Source: Dehalococcoidia bacterium (GTDB taxonomy: Bacteria > Chloroflexota > Dehalococcoidia > Bin125). Taken from it: 64,000 bases of DNA. Shown piece after piece: positions 5,792 to 23,918 of this stretch. The position numbers were made by a program, and so were the translations under genes. The DNA is taken from NCBI GenBank assembly GCA_963422755.1, contig OY730488.1, one strand, 5' to 3'. The notes beneath the pieces are model-generated. The model searched no databases. It saw only the letters and a list, made by a program, of their open reading frames with translations, and was not told where the DNA came from. Numbering within the stretch: position 1 is the first letter of the stretch; each line of letters starts with the position of its first letter.

Positions 5792-6702
5792 CCGATGCAG
5801 CTGACCCGGTGGAGGACGCTGCGGCGCATCCTGGGCCGCCGAGGCAGCGTATCTCCCCGATCAAATTTCCGTCGCAGACGCCATCACTCACGCGCCCGCG
5901 CGACGATGAGTCACAGGTGCGGCGCGATGCATATCGCGAGACTACGTTCGCGCTGCCGCTTGATCTGCGCTGGCTGCACGAGGCGTTGACGCTGCAGTGC
6001 AAGATCGTCGAGCAGTCTTATGGCGCATCTTTCCGCAATCGGCGTTATGCATCTGCGTTGCTGTTCTGGTCGCGCGTGTACGCAGGCGCGATTGAAGCGC
6101 GGGCGTTGACAGCGCGCGCTGCATACTCCTCCACGCTGCCGCTGTTGCGCGCGATGATGGAGTGGCTGGGCGCGGAGCAAGCGGTGGTCGGAGATGAACA
6201 GAGCGAGTTCGAGGACTGGCTGCGTAACGCCTGGTCTCACCACCCTGAGCAGCATGCCACTGAGATCGGGATGGGTCAGTACATGGCCGGTCAACAGATT
6301 GCCATGGCGCCCGAGACGGCCGCAACCTACCGCGCGGTATCGGAGCTGTCGCGACCGCACTTCGGCGCTTCAGCGCTGCTCAGCGCCGACGGCTCGCACG
6401 ACAAACGCTTGCTCGTCCACTGGGCGGACGAAGCGTTCCATTTGGGTTGGGCGCAATTGCTGCTTGGCTGGCAGATCGTGATTCAAGATCGGCAGTGCCG
6501 CTTCGCGGTCGGCAGCGGACTGTTCGCTGTGGAATCGGCAGACCGACAGGAATATCAGCGCCTGCACCGACAGAGCCAGAGCATCCTCGAGGATCCGCGC
6601 CGCTGCCGTGCCGAGTGGATCGTCGAATGTGGCCGTCAGCGCCTGCTCATCGACGGCTATCGCCGCCAACCGTCCGGTGCCCCCCGACGGCTCATACTCT
6701 GA
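5788..6702 (+). CDS. Hypothetical protein (no recognisable domain)
   Basis: 304-aa ORF coupled to the upstream hypothetical. No family assignable by eye. Confidence 0.5.
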   Translation: MTDAADPVEDAAAHPGPPRQRISPIKFPSQTPSLTRPRDDESQVRRDAYRETTFALPLDLRWLHEALTLQCKIVEQSYGASFRNRRYASALLFWSRVYAGAIEARALTARAAYSSTLPLLRAMMEWLGAEQAVVGDEQSEFEDWLRNAWSHHPEQHATEIGMGQYMAGQQIAMAPETAATYRAVSELSRPHFGASALLSADGSHDKRLLVHWADEAFHLGWAQLLLGWQIVIQDRQCRFAVGSGLFAVESADRQEYQRLHRQSQSILEDPRRCRAEWIVECGRQRLLIDGYRRQPSGAPRRLIL

Positions 6703-6806
6703 CGCTCATACTCTGACGGCGCGGCAAACGGCGGTGACATGCTTGAGTGCATGAGATCGCTCTGCGAGCCTGCGTGGGAGATAGACGCAATGGTTGAGGA
6801 GACCTC

Positions 6807-7832
6807 GTGACGACGAAGATTGGCATCAACGGCTTCGGACGCATCGGGCGACAGGTGCTCAAGGGCATGCTCGACTTTCACGACGGCAATCTGGAAGTGG
6901 TCGCAATCAACGACCTCACCGATCCAGCCACCAACGCGCACCTGTTCAAGTACGACACGAATTACGGCCGCTACCCGGGCGAGGTCGATGTCGTTGACGG
7001 CGACCTCGTGATCGATGGCCGCCGCATTGTGGTGCTCTCAGAGCGTGACCCCGGCCAGATCCCATGGGGCGAGCACGGCGTCGAGATCGTGGTCGAGAGC
7101 ACCGGCATCTTTACCGACGCCGAGCGGGCGCGGGGGCACCTTAACCATGGACCGTCCAAAGTCGTGATCTCGGCGCCAGCCAAGAACGAGGACCTGACGG
7201 TCGTGCTCGGCGTCAACGATGACGCGTATGACCCGACCTCGCACCACGTCGTCTCGAATGCGTCCTGCACGACCAACTGCCTGGCCCCGATCGCGAAGGT
7301 GCTCGATGACACCGTCGGGATTCGGAGCGGGATCATGTCGACGATTCACGCCTACACGAACGACCAGGCGATCCTCGACACCGTGCACGGCGACCTGCGA
7401 CGGGCGCGGGCGGCGGCGATGAACATCATCCCGACCACCACCGGCGCCGCCAAGGCCGTTGGGCTCGTGCTCCCGCATCTCAATGGCAAGCTAAACGGCA
7501 TGGCCTACCGGGTCCCCACCAGCACGGTCTCCGTCGTTGACCTGGTCATCGACGCGGAACGCGAAACATCGGCCGAAGAGCTCAACCTGGCATTTGAGAA
7601 GGCCGCCACCGATCTTGAGTCACCGCTGCACGGCATCCTCGATTACACAGACGAGCCGTTGGTCAGCAGCGACTTCAAAGGCTCGCCCGCCTCATCGATT
7701 GTCGACGCCCTCTCGACGATGGTGCTGGAGGGTAGGCAGGTCAAGGTCGTGAGCTGGTACGACAACGAGTGGGGCTACAGCGTTCGCGTCGGCGACCTCT
7801 GCGTGCGCATGGCCGAGGCCGGCTTGTCCTAG
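6807..7832 (+). CDS. gap: Glyceraldehyde-3-phosphate dehydrogenase
   Basis: 341 aa. N-terminus [16 protein letters not shown] (Rossmann), catalytic [12 protein letters not shown] motif. GTG start. Confidence 0.95.
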
Positions 7833-10624: not shown

Positions 10625-11567
10625 TCACACCGAGCCTGTCACATGGTCGCGCAGGAAGTCGATCTGAGCATTGGTGTGGCCGTCAGGATCGTCGCCGAGC
10701 GGCAGCAGATGCCAACCCCCTGCAACCCGATGGAGCTGCGCCTGCGGAATCTCACGAGCCGAGTGTTCGGCGTGGGCAAAGGGAACGTCGCGGTCATGCG
10801 TACCGTGCACGACCAACGTGGGACACTGCACTTCTCTGAGCGGCAGGACGCCGATGTCGCGAAACTGACGCATGTCGTTATGAAAGCCCTCGCGCTGCAA
10901 CGGTGTCAGCGACGCTGACTCCAGCAGCTGGGCGAGGAACGCCCGTCGCGCCGGGTCGGCGAGAATACGATCGACTGTGCGCCGACGCTCGGCGGGCGTC
11001 AGCGTGCTCTCGAAGCTGACGAGCTGGTTGATAGCGAAGCGCGGCAGCCAGCGCATGGAGCTGCGCGTTGAGCCAGTGAAAGAACGCGCTACCGGTCAGG
11101 CTGACGAGCCAGTCGGGTACGTCGGGTTCGAATCGCTGCGAGATCGCGACCTCAAGGATCAGCGCGCTCGACCGTTCCGGGTACCGCGTGGCGAAGAGAA
11201 TCGAGCTCGGGCCGCCGCCTGAGACTCCATAGGCGGATGCGCGTTCGATTCCGAGCTCGTCCAACAGGGCGGCGATAGCGTCGGCTTGCTCCTCGAATGT
11301 ACGGCCTGTCGACAACGGCGTGCGCAGGTATCCCGGCCGCGACGGAGTAATGACATCGAAGCCCGCCTCGACGATCGGCACCGCGTAGAAGCTGGCCTGA
11401 TGGCCTTGCGGCGTGCCGTGGAACATCACCACGACCGGCGTGTCGGCATCGGCGCCAGCTGGTCGTTGACGGGCGAACTCCACGGGGCCGGCGGCGGTAT
11501 CGACCAACGTCGAGCCGGCGTTCAACCGCGCCACCGTTTCTGCACGGACGCCAAGGCCAAGGATCAC
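10625..11567 (-). pseudogene. Alpha/beta-hydrolase-fold protein, split by an apparent frameshift near ~11050
   Basis: Two overlapping minus-strand ORFs (10878-11567 and 10625-11056) in different frames. N-part carries the GVSGGG nucleophile elbow. C-part carries the conserved C-terminal half (VVHGTHDRDVPF...). Confidence 0.5.
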
Positions 11568-11791
11568 GGCGCAGTCTCTTCACTGCCAGCACCGTAGCGC
11601 AACCGCGTCGCGCTTACATGGATGCGGTGAGTTGTCGGGGGGCTTCACGAATCGCCGAGTGGTCTTCGCTAACCTATAGCAGAGTCTTCTGCGTGCGCTG
11701 GCGAGCACGGTGTACGTGCACCACACAGTTGCCAGCGCCCCGGAATGGCGGCGCCGAATAGCCCCTGCGGACACAGTGAAGGGAACCACCA

Positions 11792-12535
11792 GTGGTCACA
11801 ACCGCAGATTTTGCCGACCTACCCGGTCGCTTGATCGTGGTCGAGGGGATCGATGGCTCGGGCAAAAGCACCCAGCTCGATCTGCTGCACAAGTGGTTAC
11901 GCAGCGAGGGGTATGTCACGGTCTTCACTGAATGGAACTCGTCGCCGATCGTCCGCGACACCACCAAGCGCGGCAAGCGCAAACAACTGTTGACGCCGAT
12001 GTCGTTCAGTCTGATTCACGCAGCGGACTTCGCCAGCCGCACGTACGTGCAGATCTTACCTGCGCTGCAAGCGGGCGTGATCGTTCTGGCCGACCGCTAC
12101 GTGTACACGGCTTTCGCCCGCGACGCCGCGCGCGGCGTCAATCGTAAATGGGTGCGAGATCTGTATTCGTTCGCGCCGCCGCCTAATCTCGCGCTCTACT
12201 TCCATGTGTCTCTGGAAGAGTCCATCCGCCGCATCGGCGCCGCCCGAGACGAGATCAAGTTCTATGAGGCTGGCATGGACCTGGGTCTGGCGGAGGACGC
12301 GCGGGAGTCGTTTCGCCTGTTCCAGGGCCGCATCCTGGATGAATACGCATCGCTCTGCGACGAATACGACATCACGCGGATCGACGCCGCACAGTCGCTG
12401 GTCAACCAACAGGTGCAGGTGCGGCAGCTGGTGGAGCCGCTGCTCGCTGGGATGCCCCAGCGCGAGATCTCGAGCGTGCCGACGCATCTGCAGGCGGGGT
12501 TCGCCTCGCTGGCGGCAGGAGGAGGCGGCCGGTGA
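11792..12535 (+). CDS. Thymidylate-kinase-fold P-loop kinase (Tmk-like), paralog 1
   Basis: 247 aa. P-loop LIVVEGIDGSGKST, DRY motif VLADRYVY. GTG start with AAGGGA SD. Confidence 0.8.
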   Translation: MVTTADFADLPGRLIVVEGIDGSGKSTQLDLLHKWLRSEGYVTVFTEWNSSPIVRDTTKRGKRKQLLTPMSFSLIHAADFASRTYVQILPALQAGVIVLADRYVYTAFARDAARGVNRKWVRDLYSFAPPPNLALYFHVSLEESIRRIGAARDEIKFYEAGMDLGLAEDARESFRLFQGRILDEYASLCDEYDITRIDAAQSLVNQQVQVRQLVEPLLAGMPQREISSVPTHLQAGFASLAAGGGGR

Positions 12536-13221
12536 CCCAGGTCAAGTTCTACGGAGAGCCGCCGCCCGGCATCGAGCAGGACTGGCTGCCCGGCCGCCTG
12601 ATCGTGATCGAGGGCACAGACGGCGTGGGCCGCTCGACGATCATTTCGATCCTCAAGGACTTCCTCGAGGCGCAGGGCTGGGGCGTGGTCGACAGCGGCT
12701 TGCGCCGCTCGCCGTTAGTCGGCCCCGGCATCGATCAGGCCAAGGTGGGCCATACGCTGGATCCGATCACACTCAACCTGTTCTACGCCACCGACTTCTG
12801 GGACCGCTTCGAGCGGATCATGCTGCCAGCGCTGCAGGCGGGCATGGTGGTGTTGGCCGACCGCTACATCTTCTCGCTGATGGCGCGGGCGATTGTGCGC
12901 GGAGCGCCACGTGAGTGGCTGGAACAGATTTACGGCTTTGCGATGGTGCCTGACCAGGTGATCTATCTGGACATCGACGCCGAGGGCCTCGCCCTGCGCA
13001 TCCTTGAGCGCGGCTTCGATTTCTGGGAGTCCGGCGGCGACTACTTACACGACCGCAGTATCTACGACGGCTTCATGCAGCATCAACGCGAGCAGCTACG
13101 GGAGATGTTGGCCATGTCCGAGCGCTACGGCTGGGAAGTCGTGGACGCGCGCGGAACGATCGAGGAGGTCTTCGAGCAGGTCCGCCGCGTGGTCATGCCC
13201 ACGGTCGCCAGCATGTCGTAG
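12532..13221 (+). CDS. Thymidylate-kinase-fold P-loop kinase (Tmk-like), paralog 2
   Basis: 229 aa. Variant P-loop LIVIEGTDGVGRST (Lys->Arg), VLADRYIF. GTG start overlapping the paralog 1 stop, strong GGAGGAGG SD. Confidence 0.8.
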   Translation: MTQVKFYGEPPPGIEQDWLPGRLIVIEGTDGVGRSTIISILKDFLEAQGWGVVDSGLRRSPLVGPGIDQAKVGHTLDPITLNLFYATDFWDRFERIMLPALQAGMVVLADRYIFSLMARAIVRGAPREWLEQIYGFAMVPDQVIYLDIDAEGLALRILERGFDFWESGGDYLHDRSIYDGFMQHQREQLREMLAMSERYGWEVVDARGTIEEVFEQVRRVVMPTVASMS

Positions 13222-13383: not shown

Positions 13384-16380
13384 CTAGTTCTCTGGCGTTT
13401 CCAGCGCGTCTGAGAGATATTCGACCACATGGCGCGGCTCGCGATCGGTGAAGTGGCCGATCTGCTGTCGACAAGAGACGCCAGTCACTGCCACCGGAAC
13501 GCCCAGCGCGTCGCGAATCGCGGGAAACAGCCTCAGTTCGCCCATCTGCCGCGATACCTCATAATGCTCGGATTCGAAGCCGAACGAGCCGGCCATACCG
13601 CAACAGCCGCTGTCGATCACTTGCGGGTCGTAGCCCGCAGCACGCAACACCGTCAACGTCTGGTCGAATCCCGCCAATGCCTTCTGGTGGCAATGCGGAT
13701 GTACGAGCAGTCGCCCGTGCGCGCCGTGAAACGGTCCTGACGCAACGGCGCCGTCAAGTTCCCGCGCGAGCCATTCATCGAACAGCCACGTCTGTGAGGC
13801 GACCGTCCGCGCGGCATCGTTGCGCAGCAACTGTGGATACTCATCACGGAAGGTCAGCAGACAGGATGGTTCCGTACCGATGATGGGCGTGCCGCGCCGA
13901 GCGTAATCCAACAGCGCGGCAACATTACGCTCGGCCAGTCGGCGAGCGTCGTCAAGCAATCCCTTCGAAACTGAAGGCCGCCCGCAGCAGGCGCCGCGCT
14001 CGATTCGGACGACGCGATAGCCGAGCGCCTCGATGATCCGCGTCGCCGCCATGCCGACCTCAGGATGCACATAGTTGGTAAAGGTGTCATCGAAGAGCAC
14101 AACCTCGCCGCGGAGCGTGCGTGCGTCGGTGGGTCGCGCGCGGCTGCGGAACCAGTGGCTGAACGTCTCACCGGCCAGCTTCGGCAGCGGACGTCGTGAA
14201 CCAATGCCGAGTTGCGCCGTGATTACTCGCGCTGGCCAAGTCGACGCGCATGCGTTGGCGAGCCGCGGCACCCGCGATCCCAACCGCAGCAGCAGCGCAA
14301 TGTGGGCGAAGATTCGATCGCGCAGCGGTACGCCGCGCGCGCGGTGCCGATGCGCCAGCACCTCATATTTGATCTTGGCCAGGTCGACACCCGACGGACA
14401 CTCCGCCTTGCAGGCCTTGCATTCGACGCACAGCTCCAACGCTTCGTACAGCCGGTCGCCCGACAGCTCCTCCAGCGGCATCGCGCCATTGAGCACCTGG
14501 CGCAGCAGGTTGGCGCGGCCGCGGGTGGAATGCTCTTCGTCCTGCGTGACCTGGAATGAGGGACACATACCGCCGTCGAATTTGCGACAAGCGCCTTGCC
14601 CGTTGCACATCTCGGCCGCGCGGGCGAGTCCGCCTTCAGCAGAGAAATCGAGCCAGTCGCCCGGATCATGATTGAGCGTCGCCGGGCTGAGCCGCAGGTT
14701 GTCGCGGAATGGCGGCGTATCGATGATCTTGCCGGGATTGAGCAGTCCGTCTGGATCGAAGATGCGCTTGGTCTCGCGGAACGCGTCGACCAAGCGCGCT
14801 CCGAACATCTTCTCCATGAACGCGCCGCGAACGATCCCATCACCGTGCTCCCCCGAGAGCGAGCCACCGAACTCGATCACCAGATCCGCAATCTCCGACG
14901 CCAGCGCCTCCGTCTGCTCCAGGCCAACAGGGTCTTTGACGTTGACTACCGGTCGGATGTGGAGGCAGCCGGCTGCGGCGTGTCCGTAGTACCCCGCTCG
15001 CAACCCCTGGGCCCGAACGGCGGCATCGAATCGGGCGACAAACTGCGGCAGCCGCTCGGGCGGCACAGCCGTGTCCTCGACGAACGCCACTGGCTTGGCG
15101 TCGCCATGCATCGACATCAGCAGCCCCAGTCCCGCCTGCCGCATCTGCCACATCCGCGCCTGTTGGGCGGAATCGGTCTCAGTGACGAACGCGTACCCCA
15201 TCCCCTGCGCGCGCAGCTCCGTCTCGATGGCGTGCAACTGCTCGGCAAGCTCAGCCTCGGAGTCGGCGAAGCATTCGATCAGCAGGATCGCCCCCGGCTC
15301 GCCGACGACAAACGCCGCCAGCGGTGCGTAGCCCACGCTGGATCGGCAGCGCTCGATGATGATGTCGTCGACCAGCTCAATCGCGGCGGGACGGTGGGCA
15401 TTGGCGGCGAGGGTCGCCTCGGCCGCTTCGATCAGCGTGTGAAAGTGCGCCGCCAGGATGCCTCGATACGCCGGCAGCTGGGCGAGCTGCACGGTCGCCT
15501 CGGTCACCACCGCGAGCGTCCCCTCCGAGCCGACGACCAGCTGCGACAGGTTGACGCCACCCGGATCCAGCAGCGCGTCGAGGTTGTACCCCGACACGCG
15601 GCGGGGGATATTTGGGTAGCGCTCGCCGATGCCATCGCGTTCGCGCTCGGCGAGCTCGCGGAGGTCGCGGTATAACCGCCCCTCGCGTCCGCCCTGGTCG
15701 ATCAGCGACCGCAGCCGTCGCGCGTCGACATGGTCGAAGCGCAGCCGTTCGCCGTCCGAGAGCACCACCTCCATCGCCTCGACGACATCAACCGTCTTGC
15801 CGTAGAGTCCGCTATGGGTTCCGCAGGAGTTATTGCCGATGCCGCCGCCGATCGTGGCTCGATTGGCGGTGGAGGGGTCGATGGGGTAGTGCAACCCATG
15901 CGGGCGGGCCGCCTTGTTCAGTTGTGACAAGACCAACCCCGGCTGGACGCGGGCACGCCGTCGCGCTGGGTCAATCTCCAGCACAGCGCTCATGTGACGT
16001 GTGAAGTCAAGCACGACTGCATGATTGACACCCTGTCCAGCGAGGCTGGTGCCGCCGCCGCGCGGCAGAACGGGTACGCCGTGCGAGCGCGCAATGCCCA
16101 CTGCAGCGGTGACATCGTCGTCGCTACGCGGAAACACGACGGCCACCGGCTCCATCTCGTAGAGAGACGCGTCGGTGGCGTAGAGCAGCCGCGAGGGGCG
16201 GTCGATCAGCAGGTCAGACGGGTCTGAGAGGGCGTCGCGTAGGTCGCCGGCGAGCCCGTTCAGCGCATTCGGGCCGTTGCTCAGCATCGCGCGAGCGCGT
16301 CGCACTGAGCGAAAGCTGGACGGCGCCGCGCCCGCAAGCACACTCCGAACAGACGACGGTGTGGTCACGTGAGCGCTCAT
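13384..16380 (-). CDS. FAD-binding oxidase fused to (Fe-S)-binding/CCG domains (GlcD-GlcF / YdiJ-like)
   Basis: 998 aa. N-terminal FAD-binding PCMH domain (PRGGGTSLAGQ), C-terminal 4Fe-4S ferredoxin motif CVECKACKAECP and cysteine-rich CCG domains. Start overlaps the tenI-like stop (ATGA). Confidence 0.85.
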   Translation of the reverse strand: MSAHVTTPSSVRSVLAGAAPSSFRSVRRARAMLSNGPNALNGLAGDLRDALSDPSDLLIDRPSRLLYATDASLYEMEPVAVVFPRSDDDVTAAVGIARSHGVPVLPRGGGTSLAGQGVNHAVVLDFTRHMSAVLEIDPARRRARVQPGLVLSQLNKAARPHGLHYPIDPSTANRATIGGGIGNNSCGTHSGLYGKTVDVVEAMEVVLSDGERLRFDHVDARRLRSLIDQGGREGRLYRDLRELAERERDGIGERYPNIPRRVSGYNLDALLDPGGVNLSQLVVGSEGTLAVVTEATVQLAQLPAYRGILAAHFHTLIEAAEATLAANAHRPAAIELVDDIIIERCRSSVGYAPLAAFVVGEPGAILLIECFADSEAELAEQLHAIETELRAQGMGYAFVTETDSAQQARMWQMRQAGLGLLMSMHGDAKPVAFVEDTAVPPERLPQFVARFDAAVRAQGLRAGYYGHAAAGCLHIRPVVNVKDPVGLEQTEALASEIADLVIEFGGSLSGEHGDGIVRGAFMEKMFGARLVDAFRETKRIFDPDGLLNPGKIIDTPPFRDNLRLSPATLNHDPGDWLDFSAEGGLARAAEMCNGQGACRKFDGGMCPSFQVTQDEEHSTRGRANLLRQVLNGAMPLEELSGDRLYEALELCVECKACKAECPSGVDLAKIKYEVLAHRHRARGVPLRDRIFAHIALLLRLGSRVPRLANACASTWPARVITAQLGIGSRRPLPKLAGETFSHWFRSRARPTDARTLRGEVVLFDDTFTNYVHPEVGMAATRIIEALGYRVVRIERGACCGRPSVSKGLLDDARRLAERNVAALLDYARRGTPIIGTEPSCLLTFRDEYPQLLRNDAARTVASQTWLFDEWLARELDGAVASGPFHGAHGRLLVHPHCHQKALAGFDQTLTVLRAAGYDPQVIDSGCCGMAGSFGFESEHYEVSRQMGELRLFPAIRDALGVPVAVTGVSCRQQIGHFTDREPRHVVEYLSDALETPEN

Positions 16381-16961
16381 GCGAGCAGGCTACTGTGCAG
16401 CTGATACGCCGCCTCAGACGGATCCTCAGCGCCAAGAATGGCACTCCGCACCGCGATGCCCCAGGCACCGGCTTGCAGCGCCGATTGGGCGTGCGCGGAC
16501 GTCAGACCACCGATGGCGTAGCAGGGCACGACGCCGAGCTGGCCGCTCAGCATCGTCAGATGCTCGAGCCCTGCCCCTGCTCGGTTGGGGTGGGAAGCGG
16601 TCTTGAAGATGGTACCGACAACCGCGTAGTCGACCGTGTCGGCGAGCGCCGTCTGCGCTTCCTCTGCGTCATGCACAGAACGGCCGAGCAAGACCGGTCG
16701 CTCGACCGGCGACTCAGCGGCGGCGGGCAGGTGCAAGCCGATTCCGAGCGCGTCCGCAATCTCGACTCGATTGTTGACGGTCAACACCGTCTGCGGCGGG
16801 ACGCGTCGCTGCACCGCACGGATTAGTGCGATCAATGCCGCGTCGCGCAGGTCCCGCTCGCGAAACTGGACGATCAACTGTCCGCCGACGCCCTGTGCCG
16901 CGCGAACGATGACGTCGGACAGCGGGCGACCTTGCGCCCCCTGTAGATCGGCGATCAGCAT
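16377..16961 (-). CDS. Thiamin-phosphate synthase family protein (second copy; ThiE/TenI-like)
   Basis: TMP-TENI fold (...VLLGRSVHDAEEAQTA...DYAVVGTIFKTASHP...). Start taken at internal Met. Listed ORF N-terminal extension is not protein-like. Confidence 0.7.
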   Translation of the reverse strand: MLIADLQGAQGRPLSDVIVRAAQGVGGQLIVQFRERDLRDAALIALIRAVQRRVPPQTVLTVNNRVEIADALGIGLHLPAAAESPVERPVLLGRSVHDAEEAQTALADTVDYAVVGTIFKTASHPNRAGAGLEHLTMLSGQLGVVPCYAIGGLTSAHAQSALQAGAWGIAVRSAILGAEDPSEAAYQLHSSLLA

Positions 16962-16975
16962 CAGTCGGTGCAGGA

Positions 16976-17758
16976 TCACGGCGACCTCCGCTGAAACCGC
17001 CAGGGGATCGCGCGCCGCTCGAGCAGCACCACTGCCAGGAAGAGCAGATAGCTCAACAGCGCGACCACGAAGATAGCGCCGAAGACGAGGTCGGTGCGGA
17101 AAGACAGTCTCGATTGCTCGAGGAAGATGCCGAGTCCGTCTGTGGCCCCGGCGAGCTCGCCAAAGATCGCACCCAGCACCGCATAGATCGCTGCAATCCG
17201 CAGGCCAGTGAACAGGTCGGGCAGCGCCGCGGGAATCTTCACATAGCGGTACATTTGCCATCTAGAGGCGCCAAACGTGCGCATCAAATCTAGAGTCGGT
17301 CGCTCGGTCGCGGCTAGGCCCGCGGCGAAGCCCAGCACAATCGGCACGAAGGTAAACAAGCCGATCACGATGATCTTCGGCAACATGCCAAACCCGAACC
17401 AGATAATCATCAGCGGGGCTACGACCGGAATCGGTACGGTCTGCGAGGCGACGATCAGCGGATAGAGCGCCCGTCGCAGCGGCGCGGACAGATCGAGCAG
17501 CAGCCCCAGCGTGAGTGCGCAGATGACGCTGATCGCAAATCCCGCGCCGACTTCGGACATGGTGACCAGCGAGTGCCCCCAGATCGAGCCGGCCGACTCC
17601 ACGCTCTCGCGGACGATGCGGATGGGGCCCGGCAGCACCTCGGGGCGAATGTCTGAAAGCCAAACGTAGGCTTGCCAGCTGCTCAGGACCACGAGCGTCA
17701 ACGCTGCGGGCGCGGCCACGCTGAGCGCAAACTCGCGGCTGAGGTTGCGGTAGCTCAC
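16976..17758 (-). CDS. thiX: ABC transporter permease (ThiX-like)
   Basis: Multi-TM permease with N-terminus VSYRNLSREFALSVAAPAALTLVVL. GTG start overlapping the ATPase stop. Confidence 0.8.
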   Translation of the reverse strand: MSYRNLSREFALSVAAPAALTLVVLSSWQAYVWLSDIRPEVLPGPIRIVRESVESAGSIWGHSLVTMSEVGAGFAISVICALTLGLLLDLSAPLRRALYPLIVASQTVPIPVVAPLMIIWFGFGMLPKIIVIGLFTFVPIVLGFAAGLAATERPTLDLMRTFGASRWQMYRYVKIPAALPDLFTGLRIAAIYAVLGAIFGELAGATDGLGIFLEQSRLSFRTDLVFGAIFVVALLSYLLFLAVVLLERRAIPWRFQRRSP

Positions 17759-18522
17759 GGCGGCGACTCCACATGCCCGGTCTCGCGGCGCAGGACGTCG
17801 ATCAGTCGGTGGGCGGTTTCTGTCTCGGCGGCGCGCGCGCCGCGCGGACGCGGCAAATCGACCTCGATCACGTGCGTGATCCGTCCTGGTCGCGGTGACA
17901 TCACATAGACGCGGTCGGAGAGTGCCACTGCTTCGTGCGGATCGTGTGTCACCAGCAGCGCCGAGCCGCCGATCCGATGCCAAGCTTCGGCCAGCCAGGC
18001 CTGGAGCTGTCCGCGCGTGATCGCGTCCAGTGCGCCGAACGGCTCATCGAGCAGCAGAAACGAGCGACCGAGCAGGTAGGTACGCAGAAAACTCGCCCGC
18101 TGGCGCATACCGCCCGAGAGCTCTTGCGGACGCCGATGCTCGAATCCGCCGAGTCCGAACTGGGGACAGAGAGCGGATGCGCGCGCGCGCGCCGCAGCGG
18201 GTCGCTCGCCCTGTACTTCCAGCCCCAGGGACACGTTCTCCAGCACAGTGCGCCACGGGAAGAGCATGTCCTGCTGCGGCATGTAGCCGAAGCGCCTGAG
18301 CCGCTCTGCCGCAGGCGGTGACGCGCCGTCGACCAGGATGCGGCCGGCGTCGGCGTCGTCCAGGCCAGCGATCAGGTTGAGCAGCGTCGTCTTACCGCAG
18401 CCGGACGGCCCAACCAGCGAGACGAACTCACCGTCGCGCACGCGCAGGGAAGCACCGCTGAGCGCCTGCACGCGGTCGACGCCAGAGCCAAACGCCTTCT
18501 CGACCGACTCCACCTCAAGCAC
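17755..18522 (-). CDS. thiZ: ABC transporter ATP-binding protein (ThiZ-like)
   Basis: Walker A GPSGCGKTT, ABC signature LSGGMRQRAS, Walker B LLLDEPFGALD. Confidence 0.85.
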   Translation of the reverse strand: MLEVESVEKAFGSGVDRVQALSGASLRVRDGEFVSLVGPSGCGKTTLLNLIAGLDDADAGRILVDGASPPAAERLRRFGYMPQQDMLFPWRTVLENVSLGLEVQGERPAAARARASALCPQFGLGGFEHRRPQELSGGMRQRASFLRTYLLGRSFLLLDEPFGALDAITRGQLQAWLAEAWHRIGGSALLVTHDPHEAVALSDRVYVMSPRPGRITHVIEVDLPRPRGARAAETETAHRLIDVLRRETGHVESPP

Positions 18523-18528
18523 GGCGGC

Positions 18529-19611
18529 TCAGTCCAGCGATGCCCGCGCCGCCTCGTAGAGGTCATTTGTGAAGTGCGCGGCGTAGTCGGGCGGGTCGTT
18601 GAGCGGATCGCCGTCGACATCGAGCAGCAGGCCCTGAGCGAAGAGCCAGGCGGTATAGCCCTGCCACTGCGCGAGCGTCTGCGAACCCCAGCGGCCATCG
18701 GGATCGACGTAGTACTGCGCCGCCAGCAGCCGAGCCGACTCGTACACCAAATCGAGATTGGGGAAGACATCCTCACCGGCGAGGGCGATCATCATCCGCG
18801 CCGCCTCGTTCGGTTCCGAGACGGCGTACTCGTAGCCTTGAATGGTGGCGGCGAGGAAGCGAGTCAGCAGATCAGGGTCAGCATCGATGAGGCCGCGATC
18901 CGCGACCAGCACGACGCCGGGATAGTCGGGAATACCGAAATCGGCGTACTTCCAGGTTTTCAGCTCGATTCCGCGTTGGCGCGCCTCGATTCCCTCCCAG
19001 GTAACGAAGGGTTCAACGGCCTGCACCCGACCCTCATACAGCGCCTCGTACGCGGCGGTATCGAGGATGACGCCGGAGATGTCGCCGCGGCCGCCGTCGG
19101 CGCGGACAACCCACTCCCACTGCGGCTGCTCGGCAGGGCCGCCGAAGCCACCGTAGAGCTGCCCATCAAGATCGCGCGGTCGCTCGATCGGTCCGTCCGC
19201 CAGTACGGCAACCTCAGTGGGGTTGGTCTGCAGGACGGCCGCAATGGACACGATATCCAAACCGCGCGCGCGGAAGAGCGGCAGGTAGGTCGGAAAGGAG
19301 AACGCTACGTCGGCGACGCCCTGATCGATGAGTATCTCGCCGGCCACACCGCTGTAGGGCAGCAGTTCGACCTCGATCCCTTCGTCCTCATACCAGCCCT
19401 GAGCTAACGCGACGTAGATGCCAGTGTGATTGGTGTTGGGTAGCCAGTCGAGCTGCACGCGGATGACGTTCGGCTCCGACTGCGCCTGTGGCTCCACCAC
19501 CCGCACCGTTGCGCGTTCAGCGTCTTCGGCGTCGGAGCAGGCGCTCGCGGTCAGCGCAGCGCCGAGCAGAAACCACCCGAGCAGCGCGAGCGTCAGACGG
19601 CGCACATTCAT
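18529..19611 (-). CDS. thiY: NMT1/THI5-like periplasmic binding protein (ThiY-like, pyrimidine precursor salvage)
   Basis: 360 aa. Lipoprotein-type signal (LGAALTASAC), SsuA/THI5 fold. Sits between tenA and the ABC ATPase/permease. Confidence 0.8.
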   Translation of the reverse strand: MNVRRLTLALLGWFLLGAALTASACSDAEDAERATVRVVEPQAQSEPNVIRVQLDWLPNTNHTGIYVALAQGWYEDEGIEVELLPYSGVAGEILIDQGVADVAFSFPTYLPLFRARGLDIVSIAAVLQTNPTEVAVLADGPIERPRDLDGQLYGGFGGPAEQPQWEWVVRADGGRGDISGVILDTAAYEALYEGRVQAVEPFVTWEGIEARQRGIELKTWKYADFGIPDYPGVVLVADRGLIDADPDLLTRFLAATIQGYEYAVSEPNEAARMMIALAGEDVFPNLDLVYESARLLAAQYYVDPDGRWGSQTLAQWQGYTAWLFAQGLLLDVDGDPLNDPPDYAAHFTNDLYEAARASLD

Positions 19612-20246
19612 TCCACACCTCCATTGACCCAGGCGGAATCGAAGAAGCGGTACTCGAGCTCCATTGCGGTGCGAAATTTGATCGCCACGGGTGCAGAGTC
19701 GTCACCATGCTCATCGAGCATGTCCTGGATGATCTCCACCTTCTCGAGATAGTCCTGGCTGGAATACATCTGGATCCAGAAACCGTAGCGGTCGTCAAAT
19801 GGTTGGTCGGCCAACTGCGATCCCAGCCAGCCGTAGAGTTTGGCGCACGGGGCCATCGCCGCCAGGTGTTCGCCGATCGTGCCCAACGACGCAGTCGCGA
19901 GGAGGAAGTCCGTGTACTCCCGCGCCGCCGGCAGCGGCTGGACGTCGTCGAGCGAGACGCCGAGTTCGGGCGCGGTCTGTTCATGCAGCGTGCCTTCGCT
20001 CAGAATGCCCGCCAGCAGGGCCCCGAACTGGCGGCGGGTGCCCCAATCCTGAGCGCGCACTGCGCCCCATGCATAGGAGCGCGCGTATGCGTCGAGGTAG
20101 AAGTGGTCTTGCTGCGCAAACAGCCCGTAGCGGGCCGCAGAGAGACTGCCGTCGGCGAGGCCCGTCACGAAGGGATGCTCAAGACAGGCTTCGGCGAGGT
20201 CACGGTTGGCCTCCCAGAGGCATTGCGACAGCGTTGGGTCGGACAC
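19608..20246 (-). CDS. tenA: Aminopyrimidine aminohydrolase TenA (thiaminase II)
   Basis: 212 aa. TENA/THI-4 family signature (HPFVTGLADGSL...YGLFAQQDHFYL). Confidence 0.85.
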   Translation of the reverse strand: MSDPTLSQCLWEANRDLAEACLEHPFVTGLADGSLSAARYGLFAQQDHFYLDAYARSYAWGAVRAQDWGTRRQFGALLAGILSEGTLHEQTAPELGVSLDDVQPLPAAREYTDFLLATASLGTIGEHLAAMAPCAKLYGWLGSQLADQPFDDRYGFWIQMYSSQDYLEKVEIIQDMLDEHGDDSAPVAIKFRTAMELEYRFFDSAWVNGGVE

Positions 20247-20280
20247 GGTGGCGTTCCAATCGATTTCCGTTTCGCACAGC

Positions 20281-21346
<1,066 letters not shown>

Positions 21347-21350
<4 letters not shown>

Positions 21351-22477
21351 CCGGCAGCCTCCTGACGCTGGCGCAAGAAGCGCTCGAAGCTGAACGGCGC
21401 CAGCGCATCGGTCAGCTGGCCTGCGAGCATCGACTCGGCAACCCAGTGCGCCGTGCTCGGCGCCAGCAAGATGCCACCCCGATAGTGCCCGGCGGCGATG
21501 AACACGCCGTCAACGCTCGTCGGTCCGAGCGCTGGCAGATGGTCGGAGAATGCGGGGCGCAAGCCTACATCGATTTCTGTCAGATGTAGGTCGTAGATCC
21601 CCGGCAACACCTCGAATCCGAACCGCAGCAAGTCGAGCACTCCGCCAGCGGTGGGGGTCAAGTCGAAGCCCTGTTCTTCCTCCGTTGCGCCGATCACCAG
21701 CTCACCCCCAGTTCGGGGGACGAGATACACGTCCCTGTTGCGCAGCACGTGCTCGGTCAACGGCTGACCATCTAGATGCAGGATCTGGCCCTTGACCGGG
21801 CGCATACCGACTATCGGCAGCGGGGTGAGCATTCCGTCCTCGAGCCAAACGCCCGAGGCCAGGAGCACCTGATCCGTTTGCAGCGTGGGGCTACCGCCGG
21901 CGGACTCCAGCGCCAGGGTGAGCTGGCCATTGCTCGGCTCGATGGCCGTAACGCTGGTCTGGGTTCGAATCTCCACGCCAAGCGCCTCGCAAGCCGCGCG
22001 CAGCGAGGCGATGAGCATTCGCGGGTTGACCTGCGTATCCCGCTCGACCAGCAGGCCGCCGACGGCGCGCGGGGAGACGTGCGGCTCAATCTGGCGCAGT
22101 TCGCGCCCGGTCAGGCGCTGCGCCGGCATACCGCGATCCTGCTGGATTGCGCAGAGGTGATCTAGCTCCAGCTCGTCGTCACGGTGGCGCGAGACCCAAA
22201 GCGTGCCTTCGTCGCGGTAGCCACAGGACTGTCCGCCAGTCGCCTCGACATCAGCGACGAACTGCCGATAGCGTCGCAAGCTGTCGAGCTGGAGCTCCAG
22301 CAGGGGCGGCGGCGTGTTCTCCAGCTCGGAGGAGGGCGCCAGCATGCCGGCAGCGACTGATGAGGCGCCCGCGCCTAGCGCTACCCGTTCCAGCAAGGTC
22401 ACGTCGAAGCCGCGGCGCGCCAGCTCGAACGCGCAAGACAGCCCGATCACACCGCCGCCTACGATTGCCACACGCAT
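21347..22477 (-). CDS. thiO: Glycine oxidase ThiO
   Basis: FAD dinucleotide fold at the N-terminus MRVAIVGGGVIGLSCAFELARRGFDV. DAO family, located in the thi operon. Start overlaps the thiE stop. Confidence 0.85.
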
Positions 22478-23130
22478 CAGGTCCACCGCGCAATCTCGTC
22501 GGCGAAAGCGCGCGTCGCTCGGCCTGGATCCTGCTGACACACTACGGCGGACAACACAGCGACGCCGTGCGCCCCGGCAGCGAGCAGATCGGCGACGCGC
22601 TCGACCGTGACGCCGCCGATCCCGATGACCGGCTTGTCGACGGCGGCGCAGATCTCGGCAAAGCACTCAAGGCCCAGCATCGGCGCAGCGCGTCCGCCTT
22701 TGGAGGTGGTACCGAAGACCGGTCCGACCCCGAGGTAATCGACTGGCCGCTGCGCGACCGTGATCGCCTCCTCGACAGAATTGGCCGTGCCGCCGATGAT
22801 CGCCTCAGGGCCGAGCATCCGTCGCGCCATATGTGGCGGGAGATCGTCGCGGCCGAGGTGCACAGCCGTCGCACCGACGGCGGCTGCCACATCCACGCGG
22901 TCGTTGACCAGCAGCGTCGCTCCATGCGTGTGACAGGCAGTGCACATCAGCTCAGCGACGCGGATCATCTGCCGTGTTGAGACTGGACGTTTCTCGCGGT
23001 ACTGCACCGTGTCAGCTCCGCCAGCCGCGGCGGCCGTGGCGAGGGCAACATGTGAGGCGCGATCTTGCAACAGCTCGTCCGTAATGACGTGCAGCCGACC
23101 GATCGGTTTGGTGTACGTAGTCATCAGCAA
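22477..23130 (-). CDS. thiE: Thiamin-phosphate synthase ThiE
   Basis: 217 aa, canonical ThiE (HVITDELL...VQYREK...LLVNDRVDVAAAVGATAVHLG...GVGPVFGT). Confidence 0.9.
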   Translation of the reverse strand: MLMTTYTKPIGRLHVITDELLQDRASHVALATAAAAGGADTVQYREKRPVSTRQMIRVAELMCTACHTHGATLLVNDRVDVAAAVGATAVHLGRDDLPPHMARRMLGPEAIIGGTANSVEEAITVAQRPVDYLGVGPVFGTTSKGGRAAPMLGLECFAEICAAVDKPVIGIGGVTVERVADLLAAGAHGVAVLSAVVCQQDPGRATRAFADEIARWT

Positions 23131-23918
23131 CGTCCTCGACAGGCCCAGAAGTGATCGGTAGGCCCGACGCCGTGTCCGATCTCAAGTCCGCCGCGGATCG
23201 CTTCGGTCACATATCGCTTGGCGGAGCTGACCGCGTCCGGTAGCTCGTCGCCGAGCGCCAGCCTGGCGGCGATGGCGGAGGCGTAGGTACAGCCCGTGCC
23301 ATGCGTATGTCGGGTCTCGATCCATTCGCGTTCGATCAGGCGCGTTTCGTCTCGTGTGACCAATACATCTGTGCCGGGCGACTCAGCGAGGTGCCCGCCC
23401 TTGACCAATGCCGCCTCCGCGCCGAGCTCAAGCAACGCAGCGCCGGCGCGCTTGGCCTCGGCAATGGTCTCCACGGCGATGCCAGTCAGCCGCTCGGCTT
23501 CGTGCGTGTTGGGTGTGACTACGCTAGACAGGGGAATCAACCGCGCCCGGAACGTGTCCACCGCCTCGGCAGCGAGCAACGGGAAACCGGTCTTCGAAAT
23601 CATGACCGGGTCGACCACGATCCGAGGCGGTCGGCGTGTTGCAAGCTCGTCGGCGACAGCCTCGATCATTTCCACGTCGCCAAGCATGCCGGTCTTGACC
23701 ACCGCGACGTTGAGGTCGGAGAAGACAGACTCGATCTGCGCACGGACCATCGCGGTCGGGAGTTGGTAGGCGTGCTGGACGCCGAGCGTGTTCTGTGCGG
23801 TCACGGCGGTGATCACGGTGGCGGCGTAGACGCCGTTGGCCGCGATCGACTTGAGGTCGGCCTGGATGCCAGCGCCGGCTGAAGAATCGGAGCCGGCCAT
23901 GCTGCAAACGACGCGCAC
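23124..23918 (-). CDS. thiD: Hydroxymethylpyrimidine/phosphomethylpyrimidine kinase ThiD
   Basis: AGSDSSAGAGIQADLKS N-terminus, ribokinase fold. GTG start with AGGA SD. An alternative ATG at 23900 is possible. Confidence 0.85.
   Translation of the reverse strand: MRVVCSMAGSDSSAGAGIQADLKSIAANGVYAATVITAVTAQNTLGVQHAYQLPTAMVRAQIESVFSDLNVAVVKTGMLGDVEMIEAVADELATRRPPRIVVDPVMISKTGFPLLAAEAVDTFRARLIPLSSVVTPNTHEAERLTGIAVETIAEAKRAGAALLELGAEAALVKGGHLAESPGTDVLVTRDETRLIEREWIETRHTHGTGCTYASAIAARLALGDELPDAVSSAKRYVTEAIRGGLEIGHGVGPTDHFWACRGRC

Follow-up and report, generated by a model that had tools for sequence, protein, structure and literature searches.

Two adjacent open reading frames (ORF1 and ORF2) in a 64,000-nucleotide stretch of Dehalococcoidia DNA (contig OY730488.1 of assembly GCA_963422755.1; this whole stretch is hereafter called the window) very probably encode the catalytic and the regulatory subunit, respectively, of the two-subunit polyphosphate kinase PPK3, and not nucleoside monophosphate (NMP) kinases, as judged by comparison with their sequence relatives. 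ORF1 (positions 11792–12535, plus strand; 247 aa; GTG start), which databases name "dTMP kinase," is the predicted catalytic subunit, cPPK3, and ORF2 (12532–13221, plus strand; 229 aa; GTG start) is the predicted regulatory subunit, rPPK3. The stop of ORF1 and the start of ORF2 share the 4-nt overlap GTGA (12532–12535, plus strand), an arrangement indicative of translational coupling. Each frame is preceded on the same strand by a Shine–Dalgarno-like sequence: AAGGGA (11779–11784), 7 nt 5′ of the ORF1 GTG, and GGAGGAGG (12518–12525), which lies within the end of ORF1, 6 nt 5′ of the ORF2 GTG. A prior description made from the DNA letters (the sequence-only reading) had proposed a pair of translationally coupled frames with the thymidylate kinase (Tmk) fold and a Shine–Dalgarno site each; the coordinates, the signals just given, and matches to Pfam PF02223 (Thymidylate_kin; 70.6 bits for ORF1 and 60.1 bits for ORF2) bear this out. 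A tblastn search of the 64-kb window returned no third Tmk-like sequence.

PPK3 is a family of polyphosphate kinases first described in archaea in 2024–2026 (Hofmann et al., J Biol Chem 2026, PMC12995831; preprint 10.1101/2024.08.28.610084). In the Sulfolobus acidocaldarius operon sixA-ppx-2019-2020-CHAD, the adjacent "thymidylate kinases" Saci_2019 and Saci_2020 make up the heteromeric enzyme: Saci_2019, a homologue of STK_15430, is the catalytic subunit cPPK3, while Saci_2020 (rPPK3) is inactive alone yet boosts activity, with a maximum at a 1:1 ratio, in an α2β2 complex that has an r-dimer core (PMC12995831). The S. acidocaldarius enzyme is reversible and strongly favors the reaction of polyphosphate (polyP) with ADP to give ATP, making polyP only at high ATP/ADP; neither Saci_2019 nor Saci_2020 forms dTDP, the real dTMP kinase being Saci_0893 (PMC12995831). 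Hofmann et al. further reported that PPK3 has not kept the residues that bind dTMP, the "EP" motif among them, and that a basic polyP cleft is conserved in the catalytic (c) but not in the regulatory (r) subunit; they ascribed the inactivity of rPPK3 to a lost arginine of the DRX motif, and pairs in ppx-type operons were counted as PPK3 (PMC12995831).

The two frames are orthologous to these subunits in the same order. ORF1 is 44% identical to Saci_2019 (E 5e-61), with which it shares the motifs TEWNSS, FSLIHA(T/A)DF, DRYxYTAxARD, and K..EAG.D, and ORF2 is 28% identical to Saci_2020 (E 3e-24); the higher identity of ORF2 to Saci_2019 (34%) is attributable to the fast evolution of Sulfolobales r-subunits. 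As in S. acidocaldarius, the genes of the dTMP kinase fold are adjacent, c then r, with overlapping reading frames. A neighbor-joining tree with 11 sequences of each type and a single T. thermophilus Tmk as root unites the whole c-type set, ORF1 and Saci_2019 among them, in one clade (77% bootstrap) and places ORF2 with Saci_2020 and the S. tokodaii r-subunit in the r-type clade (88% bootstrap), in which the Sulfolobales r-subunits are long-branched; being built by a simple distance method with one outgroup, the tree is supportive rather than definitive.

Comparison with solved structures leads to the same family. ORF1 matches the S. tokodaii cPPK3 homologue (2plr/5h70) at 172.8 bits (E 8e-50), with canonical Tmks at no more than 49.6 bits. 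The same protein, STK_15430 of Sulfurisphaera tokodaii (ST1543; 2plr, 4nzy, 4rzx, 5h70), is also the best solved relative of ORF2 by sequence (E 3e-29); canonical Tmks reach E values of only ~1e-12 to 1e-13 against either frame. An AlphaFold2 (AF2) model of ORF2 (predicted local distance difference test score, pLDDT, 84.5; predicted template modeling score, pTM, 0.84) has 5h70 as its nearest fold (template modeling scores 0.79/0.86), and the T. thermophilus and S. aureus Tmks score ~0.70/0.85. STK_15430 differs from the pair studied here in being a catalytic-type subunit solved alone, and its PDB deposits are labeled "dTMP kinase"; no structure of an r-subunit or of a complex turned up in our PDB searches. 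ORF1 and ORF2 are 35% identical (E 9e-40) and are closer to one another than to canonical Tmks, so that their earlier description as only distantly related was overstated.

We then compared 234 c-type and 119 r-type sequences residue by residue. The ATP-site residues of cPPK3 are all present in ORF1, and each is found in 100% of the c-type sequences: K25 (codon 11864–11866) of the Walker A motif EGIDGSGKST (11843–11872, plus strand), R102 of the DRX motif (D101-R102-Y103; 12092–12100, plus strand), and the LID arginine R147. ORF2 carries a degenerate Walker A motif, EGTDGVGRST (12610–12639, plus strand), in which R34 (codon 12631–12633) stands in the place of the lysine, together with an intact DRY motif (D110-R111-Y112; 12859–12867, plus strand); both R34 and R111 are arginine in 100% of the r-type sequences. 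The canonical GIDGSGKST of ORF1, the Lys-to-Arg GTDGVGRST of ORF2, and the two DRY motifs had been picked out in the sequence-only reading and were read again here, and the broader comparison shows the substitution to be a signature of the second subunit across bacteria (119 of 119) rather than something particular to the window.

The dTMP site is lost from both frames, as in S. acidocaldarius PPK3. In place of R38-E39-P40 of T. thermophilus Tmk, ORF1 has E47-W48-N49 (at least 98% conserved) and ORF2 has G56-L57-R58 (G and L 99%, R 57%). The thymine-stacking F65 is H76 in ORF1 (His in 97%) and Y85 in ORF2 (Tyr in 100%), and the phosphate-binding R69 is a phenylalanine in both, F80 in ORF1 and F89 in ORF2 (Phe in 96% of either type). 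Five conserved basic residues are confined to c: at positions K/R63, K64, R122, R152, and K156 the r-type sequences have Gln/Val, Gly (100%), Glu (92%), Thr, and Asp (98%), respectively. This loss or charge reversal in r fits the published polyP cleft that is conserved in c and not in r, and positions 63, 64, 122, 152, and 156 would accordingly line that cleft.

The r-type sequences also have invariant basic residues of their own, R59 (100%; Ser in 100% of c-type) and also R22, K42, R95, and R207, and ORF2 retains most of the nucleotide-site arginines (R119, R123, and R156 besides DRY). The distinct N-terminal extension of ORF2 (12532–12591, plus strand), which had also been noticed earlier, proved to carry a conserved F-Y-G-x-P-P-G motif (F6-Y7-G8-x-x-P11-P12-G13; among the r-type sequences F 98%, G 100%, P 99%, P 94%, and G 97%), and its residues 1–10 and 11–20 have mean pLDDT values of 91 and 89 in the AF2 monomer. 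The Walker A arginine is found in the r-subunit of every bacterial and Nitrososphaera-like locus with a readable motif. On a contig labeled Nitrososphaera sp. (L088), the r-subunit has the Arg P-loop, an intact DRY, and a related YYGKG N-terminal extension, and the r-subunit of a further locus (L089) likewise combines the Arg P-loop with an intact DRY. Among the best 143 unfused representatives at 50% identity, 72 combine the Walker A Arg with DRY, and in a few the Arg gives way to Cys or Ser; in fused forms His or Thr occupies the position. Saci_2020, in contrast, keeps the Walker A Lys (GIMSSGKTT) and has DGY in place of DRY. This lesion, which reads ADGY both in Saci_2020 and in its S. tokodaii counterpart (the P-loop of the latter was not readable), is confined to Sulfolobales r-subunits among the loci examined, and the F-Y-G-x-P-P-G extension is missing in Sulfolobales. 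We treat the loss of the DRX arginine as a trait of Sulfolobales and not of the family, since DRY is kept by all the bacterial and Nitrososphaera-like pairs that we examined in ppx operons and pairs so placed are ranked as PPK3 by Hofmann et al. (PMC12995831).

Conservation of the pair was assessed by searching one genome per species with two peptide patterns, which gave 333 confirmed relatives of ORF2, of which 80 loci were kept; the matches listed come from Dehalococcoidia, Chloroflexia, Actinomycetota, and Eisenbacteria. A c-type gene lies directly upstream on the same strand in 79 of the 80 species-level loci (the remaining contig begins at the r gene), and the 4-nt overlap recurs in 72 of 92 scored loci, a set that includes the window and a few duplicate fetches, with gaps of 6–22 nt in most of the others. 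When the pair is compared with its orthologues in the window's own clade (46 species loci, each at least 66% identical to ORF2), the median ratio of nonsynonymous to synonymous substitution rates (dN/dS) is 0.066 for c and 0.075 for r, which reflects strong purifying selection on both genes. Given the constancy of order and overlap and a dN/dS of ~0.07, the pair is not a chance arrangement.

The genes around the pair in relatives connect it to polyP. Loci 57–62% identical to ORF2 (L049–L086) have ppx directly upstream and sixA and CYTH-CHAD downstream; this ppx-c-r-sixA-CHAD arrangement occurs in Actinomycetota, Chloroflexia, Eisenbacteria, and some Dehalococcoidia, often adjoins pstSCAB-phoU, and sometimes adjoins NUDIX and PPK2 genes. 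The PPK3 loci of S. acidocaldarius and S. tokodaii were recovered as well (L087 and L090) and have the same operon as the bacterial relatives. Natural fusions of c to r occur in P0019 (beside ppx, on L091) and P0361, and fusions of c, r, and Ppx/GppA domain III in P0373, P0400, and P0411. Operon context and fusions together link the pair in bacteria with polyP metabolism and point to a physical association between its modules, and the c-r fusions and the conserved translational coupling lend indirect support to the prediction that ORF1 and ORF2 form a heteromer. The orthology, the conserved pairing, the operon context in relatives, the residue patterns, and the purifying selection are direct observations on these sequences.

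We infer the activity of the pair, its reaction direction, its stoichiometry and complex formation, and the role of ORF2 from the Sulfolobus biochemistry. By that analogy, ORF1 would bind ATP or ADP at its normal P-loop, hold a polyP chain instead of dTMP in its basic cleft, and move phosphate reversibly between polyP and ADP; ORF2, itself noncatalytic, would oligomerize with ORF1 and stimulate it. The GTGA overlap would couple translation of the two frames and so provide an equal supply of subunits, in keeping with the 1:1 ratio that gives the archaeal enzyme its maximal activity. A heteromer of one catalytic and one regulatory or pseudokinase subunit had been proposed in the sequence-only reading; this part agrees with the Saci_2019/Saci_2020 α2β2 enzyme, while the second substrate would be polyphosphate and not an NMP. 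A comparable division of labor is known in two-domain class II PPK2 enzymes such as Pseudomonas aeruginosa PA3455, in which an inactive duplicated P-loop kinase module aids oligomerization and stimulates its catalytic partner, and in which the favored direction is polyP-dependent phosphorylation of nucleotides (PMC12995831). These enzymes belong to another P-loop kinase family (PF03976), are single polypeptides that use AMP and GMP as acceptors, and have their ADP and polyP sites swapped relative to PPK3 (PMC12995831).

Several observations weigh against the assignment to PPK3. Among the features by which PPK3 is recognized, the pair has co-oriented c-then-r genes of the dTMP kinase fold, orthology to cPPK3 and to rPPK3, the ATP-site motifs, a lost dTMP site, and the basic residues found only in c; it lacks the DRX-arginine lesion in the second subunit and, in the window and its clade, a neighborhood of polyP genes. 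The lesion published for rPPK3 is replaced in ORF2 by a different catalytic-motif lesion, Walker A Lys to Arg, and ORF2 is not necessarily an inactive scaffold, because its DRX arginine is intact and most nucleotide-site arginines are kept. Unlike the S. acidocaldarius locus, that of the window has no sixA-ppx or CHAD neighbors. No ppx, sixA, CHAD, PPK2, pstS, or phoU gene was found within ~8 kb on each side of the pair in the 46 clade loci; tblastn searches of the 64-kb window with the relatives' proteins (E 1e-6) detected none of these and no NUDIX gene, and Pfam scans of 20 further ORFs of the window, including all the largest, gave no PPK1, PPK2, or Ppx. The polyP-operon argument is accordingly indirect for the lineage of the window. 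The functional assignment depends on identity to the characterized archaeal proteins, 44% for c and 28% for r, and on the synteny of relatives; the host is bacterial and presumably mesophilic. The S. acidocaldarius enzyme is the only one with demonstrated polyP:ADP phosphotransferase activity and no dTMP kinase activity (PMC12995831).

These points bear most directly on the alternative of a pair descended from PPK3 whose role has changed in the window's Dehalococcoidia clade, either using another polyP acceptor or employing ORF2 as a nucleotide/polyP sensor or a second weak site. The locus is orphaned across the whole clade, between tRNA-Ala and tRNA-Phe, in the recurrent arrangement rpsP-KH-rimM-tRNA-Ala-[c-r]-tRNA-Phe-FAD/FeS oxidase-thiE. 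The nucleotide-site arginines retained by ORF2, the invariant basic residues specific to r, and the conserved and apparently ordered N-terminal motif would all suit such a role, and P-loop proteins in which the Walker A Lys has been mutated to Arg generally remain able to bind nucleotide. However, the c and r signature residues of the clade are identical to those of relatives in ppx operons, with no clade-specific change of motif, and a lost gene linkage does not by itself imply a changed function. We therefore regard a modified role as improbable.

It is less probable still that one or both frames are genuine dTMP kinases, with ORF1 serving as the housekeeping Tmk. ORF1 scores 87.6 bits against the dTMP kinase equivalog TIGR00041, barely over the cut-off of 83.25, its homologues are named dTMP kinases in the source databases, and the 64-kb window holds no other Tmk-like gene. 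The pair also shares the fold of canonical Tmks (TIGR00041, PF02223) and their arrangement of P-loop, DRY, and LID. Against this, ORF2 falls under the cut-off, at 66.1 bits; identity to canonical Tmks is ~25%; and in both frames the R-E-P motif has given way to other residues, as have the thymine-stacking Phe and the phosphate-binding Arg. Canonical Tmks match one another at 90–145 bits and STK_15430 at only 58 bits, and they are typically homodimers, unlike the heterotetrameric PPK3 that has been characterized (PMC12995831). The orthologous Saci_2019 and Saci_2020 do not make dTDP, whereas the canonical Saci_0893 does (PMC12995831), and the "unusual Tmk" activity once claimed for STK_15430 was based on a measurement of ADP formation only (10.1101/2024.08.28.610084). 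By its marginal score and replaced dTMP-site residues, ORF1 does not classify as a canonical thymidylate kinase, and by sequence the same is true of ORF2 with its score below the cut-off. The possibility considered earlier, that one copy might group with orthodox Tmks, is not realized for either frame, and residues, orthology, and context lead us to reject the housekeeping reading. As a separate observation, cPPK3 proteins are likely systematically misannotated as Tmk: ORF1 lies 4 bits over the TIGR00041 cut-off, and its homologues are named dTMP or thymidylate kinase at NCBI and JGI.

Least probable of all is the suggestion, also made in the sequence-only reading, that the frames are kinases for modified deoxynucleoside monophosphates, such as the hydroxymethyl-dUMP (hmdUMP) type of phages: the Tmk fold and an altered dTMP site are all that speaks for it, the scanned neighbors are housekeeping or metabolic (rpsP, rimM, tRNAs, the oxidase, thiamine genes) with no phage or DNA-modification gene among them, the loci of relatives are polyphosphate operons, and the thymine-stacking and phosphate-clamp residues give way to a conserved basic patch and not to another base pocket, so that residues, orthology, and context again led us to reject it.

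The searches also uncovered variants of the c-r arrangement. In P0373, P0400, and P0411 (650–696 aa), a Tmk-fold domain of the c type is joined to one of the r type, whose P-loop is degenerate, and to Ppx/GppA domain III/HD at the C terminus; these proteins amount to a single-chain "polyP module," of which we found no mention in the main texts of the PPK3 papers. P0456 and P0465 (454–471 aa) have an N-terminal Tmk-like domain without a recognizable Walker A motif followed by a domain with EGIDHAGRST (an Arg P-loop) and DRY, and may stem from another kind of fusion or from rearrangement in a relative of the c-r pair. Four other candidate fusions (P0018, P0026, P0084, and P0424) look like frameshift or deletion chimeras and were not used as evidence. 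PPK2 and NUDIX genes lie a few kb downstream of the pair in L056, L064, and L086, and PPK2 alone, with weaker matches, in L068 and L073; these PPK2-bearing loci, near the ppx-c-r-sixA-CHAD operon, belong to several Actinomycetota and others. PPK3 and PPK2 thus coexist in some bacteria, although most PPK3 genomes have been reported to be without PPK1 and PPK2 (PMC12995831). In L089 (ENA ERZ25039536, contig_43286), a c-r pair at 6001–7532 with the Nitrososphaera-like r signature GPDASGRTS has no ppx, sixA, or CHAD within 6 kb, which indicates that orphan PPK3 pairs are not confined to the window's clade.

The surroundings of the pair in the window look ordinary in content. At 13384–16380 (minus strand), an FAD-linked oxidase is fused to 4Fe-4S and CCG domains in a GlcD/GlcF-like protein of 998 aa, which is followed at 16377–23918 by a thiamine cluster of thiE, an ABC transporter with an NMT1-type binding protein, tenA, thiG, thiS, and thiO; the oxidase and thiE recur beside the PPK3 pair in clade loci. 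Just upstream of ORF1, an alpha/beta-hydrolase gene (10625–11567, minus strand) is split into two overlapping pieces in different frames, 10878–11567 and 10625–11056. The split gene spans 943 nt and corresponds to a single 942-nt, 313-aa gene in a near-identical assembly (L002; 276 aa are called in L001), so that a one-base indel accounts for the split, the gene being either a pseudogene or misassembled. Four tRNA genes (Met, Val, Leu, and Arg) lie at 252–745 of the window; in L024 they stand on the opposite strand ~3 kb upstream of the PPK3 pair, which points to a local rearrangement between close genomes. A scan around the pair found no promoter-like site and only terminator-like sites at chance level, a result that carries little information for so GC-rich an organism.

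The PPK3 family itself is already published, and ORF1 and ORF2 most likely add to it a bacterial member from Dehalococcoidia. Its range has been given as mainly archaeal with "a few bacteria," the preprint naming mainly Acidobacteriota and Candidatus taxa (10.1101/2024.08.28.610084). There are three apparent additions here. The majority signature of the r-subunit is a Walker A Arg with an intact DRY, unlike the published DRX-arginine lesion; PPK3 appears, from the relatives recovered, to be much commoner in bacteria than "a few"; and in the window's Dehalococcoidia clade the pair persists as an orphan bicistron under strong purifying selection. Neither the Walker A Arg, nor Chloroflexota, nor an orphan bicistron is mentioned in the main text of either PPK3 paper, to which this comparison was confined.

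Beyond the assignment to PPK3, the invariant Walker A Arg, the intact DRY, the invariant arginines proper to r, and the ordered F-Y-G-x-P-P-G N-terminal arm suggest a more speculative possibility, which we advance only tentatively: the second subunit of bacterial and Nitrososphaera-like enzymes may be a nucleotide/polyP sensor that tunes the response to ATP/ADP and not a dead scaffold, with the DRX explanation holding for Sulfolobales only and PPK3 being common in Chloroflexota and Actinomycetota. With the name "dTMP kinase" in databases and ORF1 above the equivalog cut-off, metabolic reconstructions would count a spurious tmk and miss a polyphosphate kinase, a misannotation that would affect reconstructions of Dehalococcoidia, other Chloroflexota, and Actinomycetota; and the combination of a Walker A Arg with an intact DRY offers a concrete, testable handle on the mechanism of the regulatory subunit.

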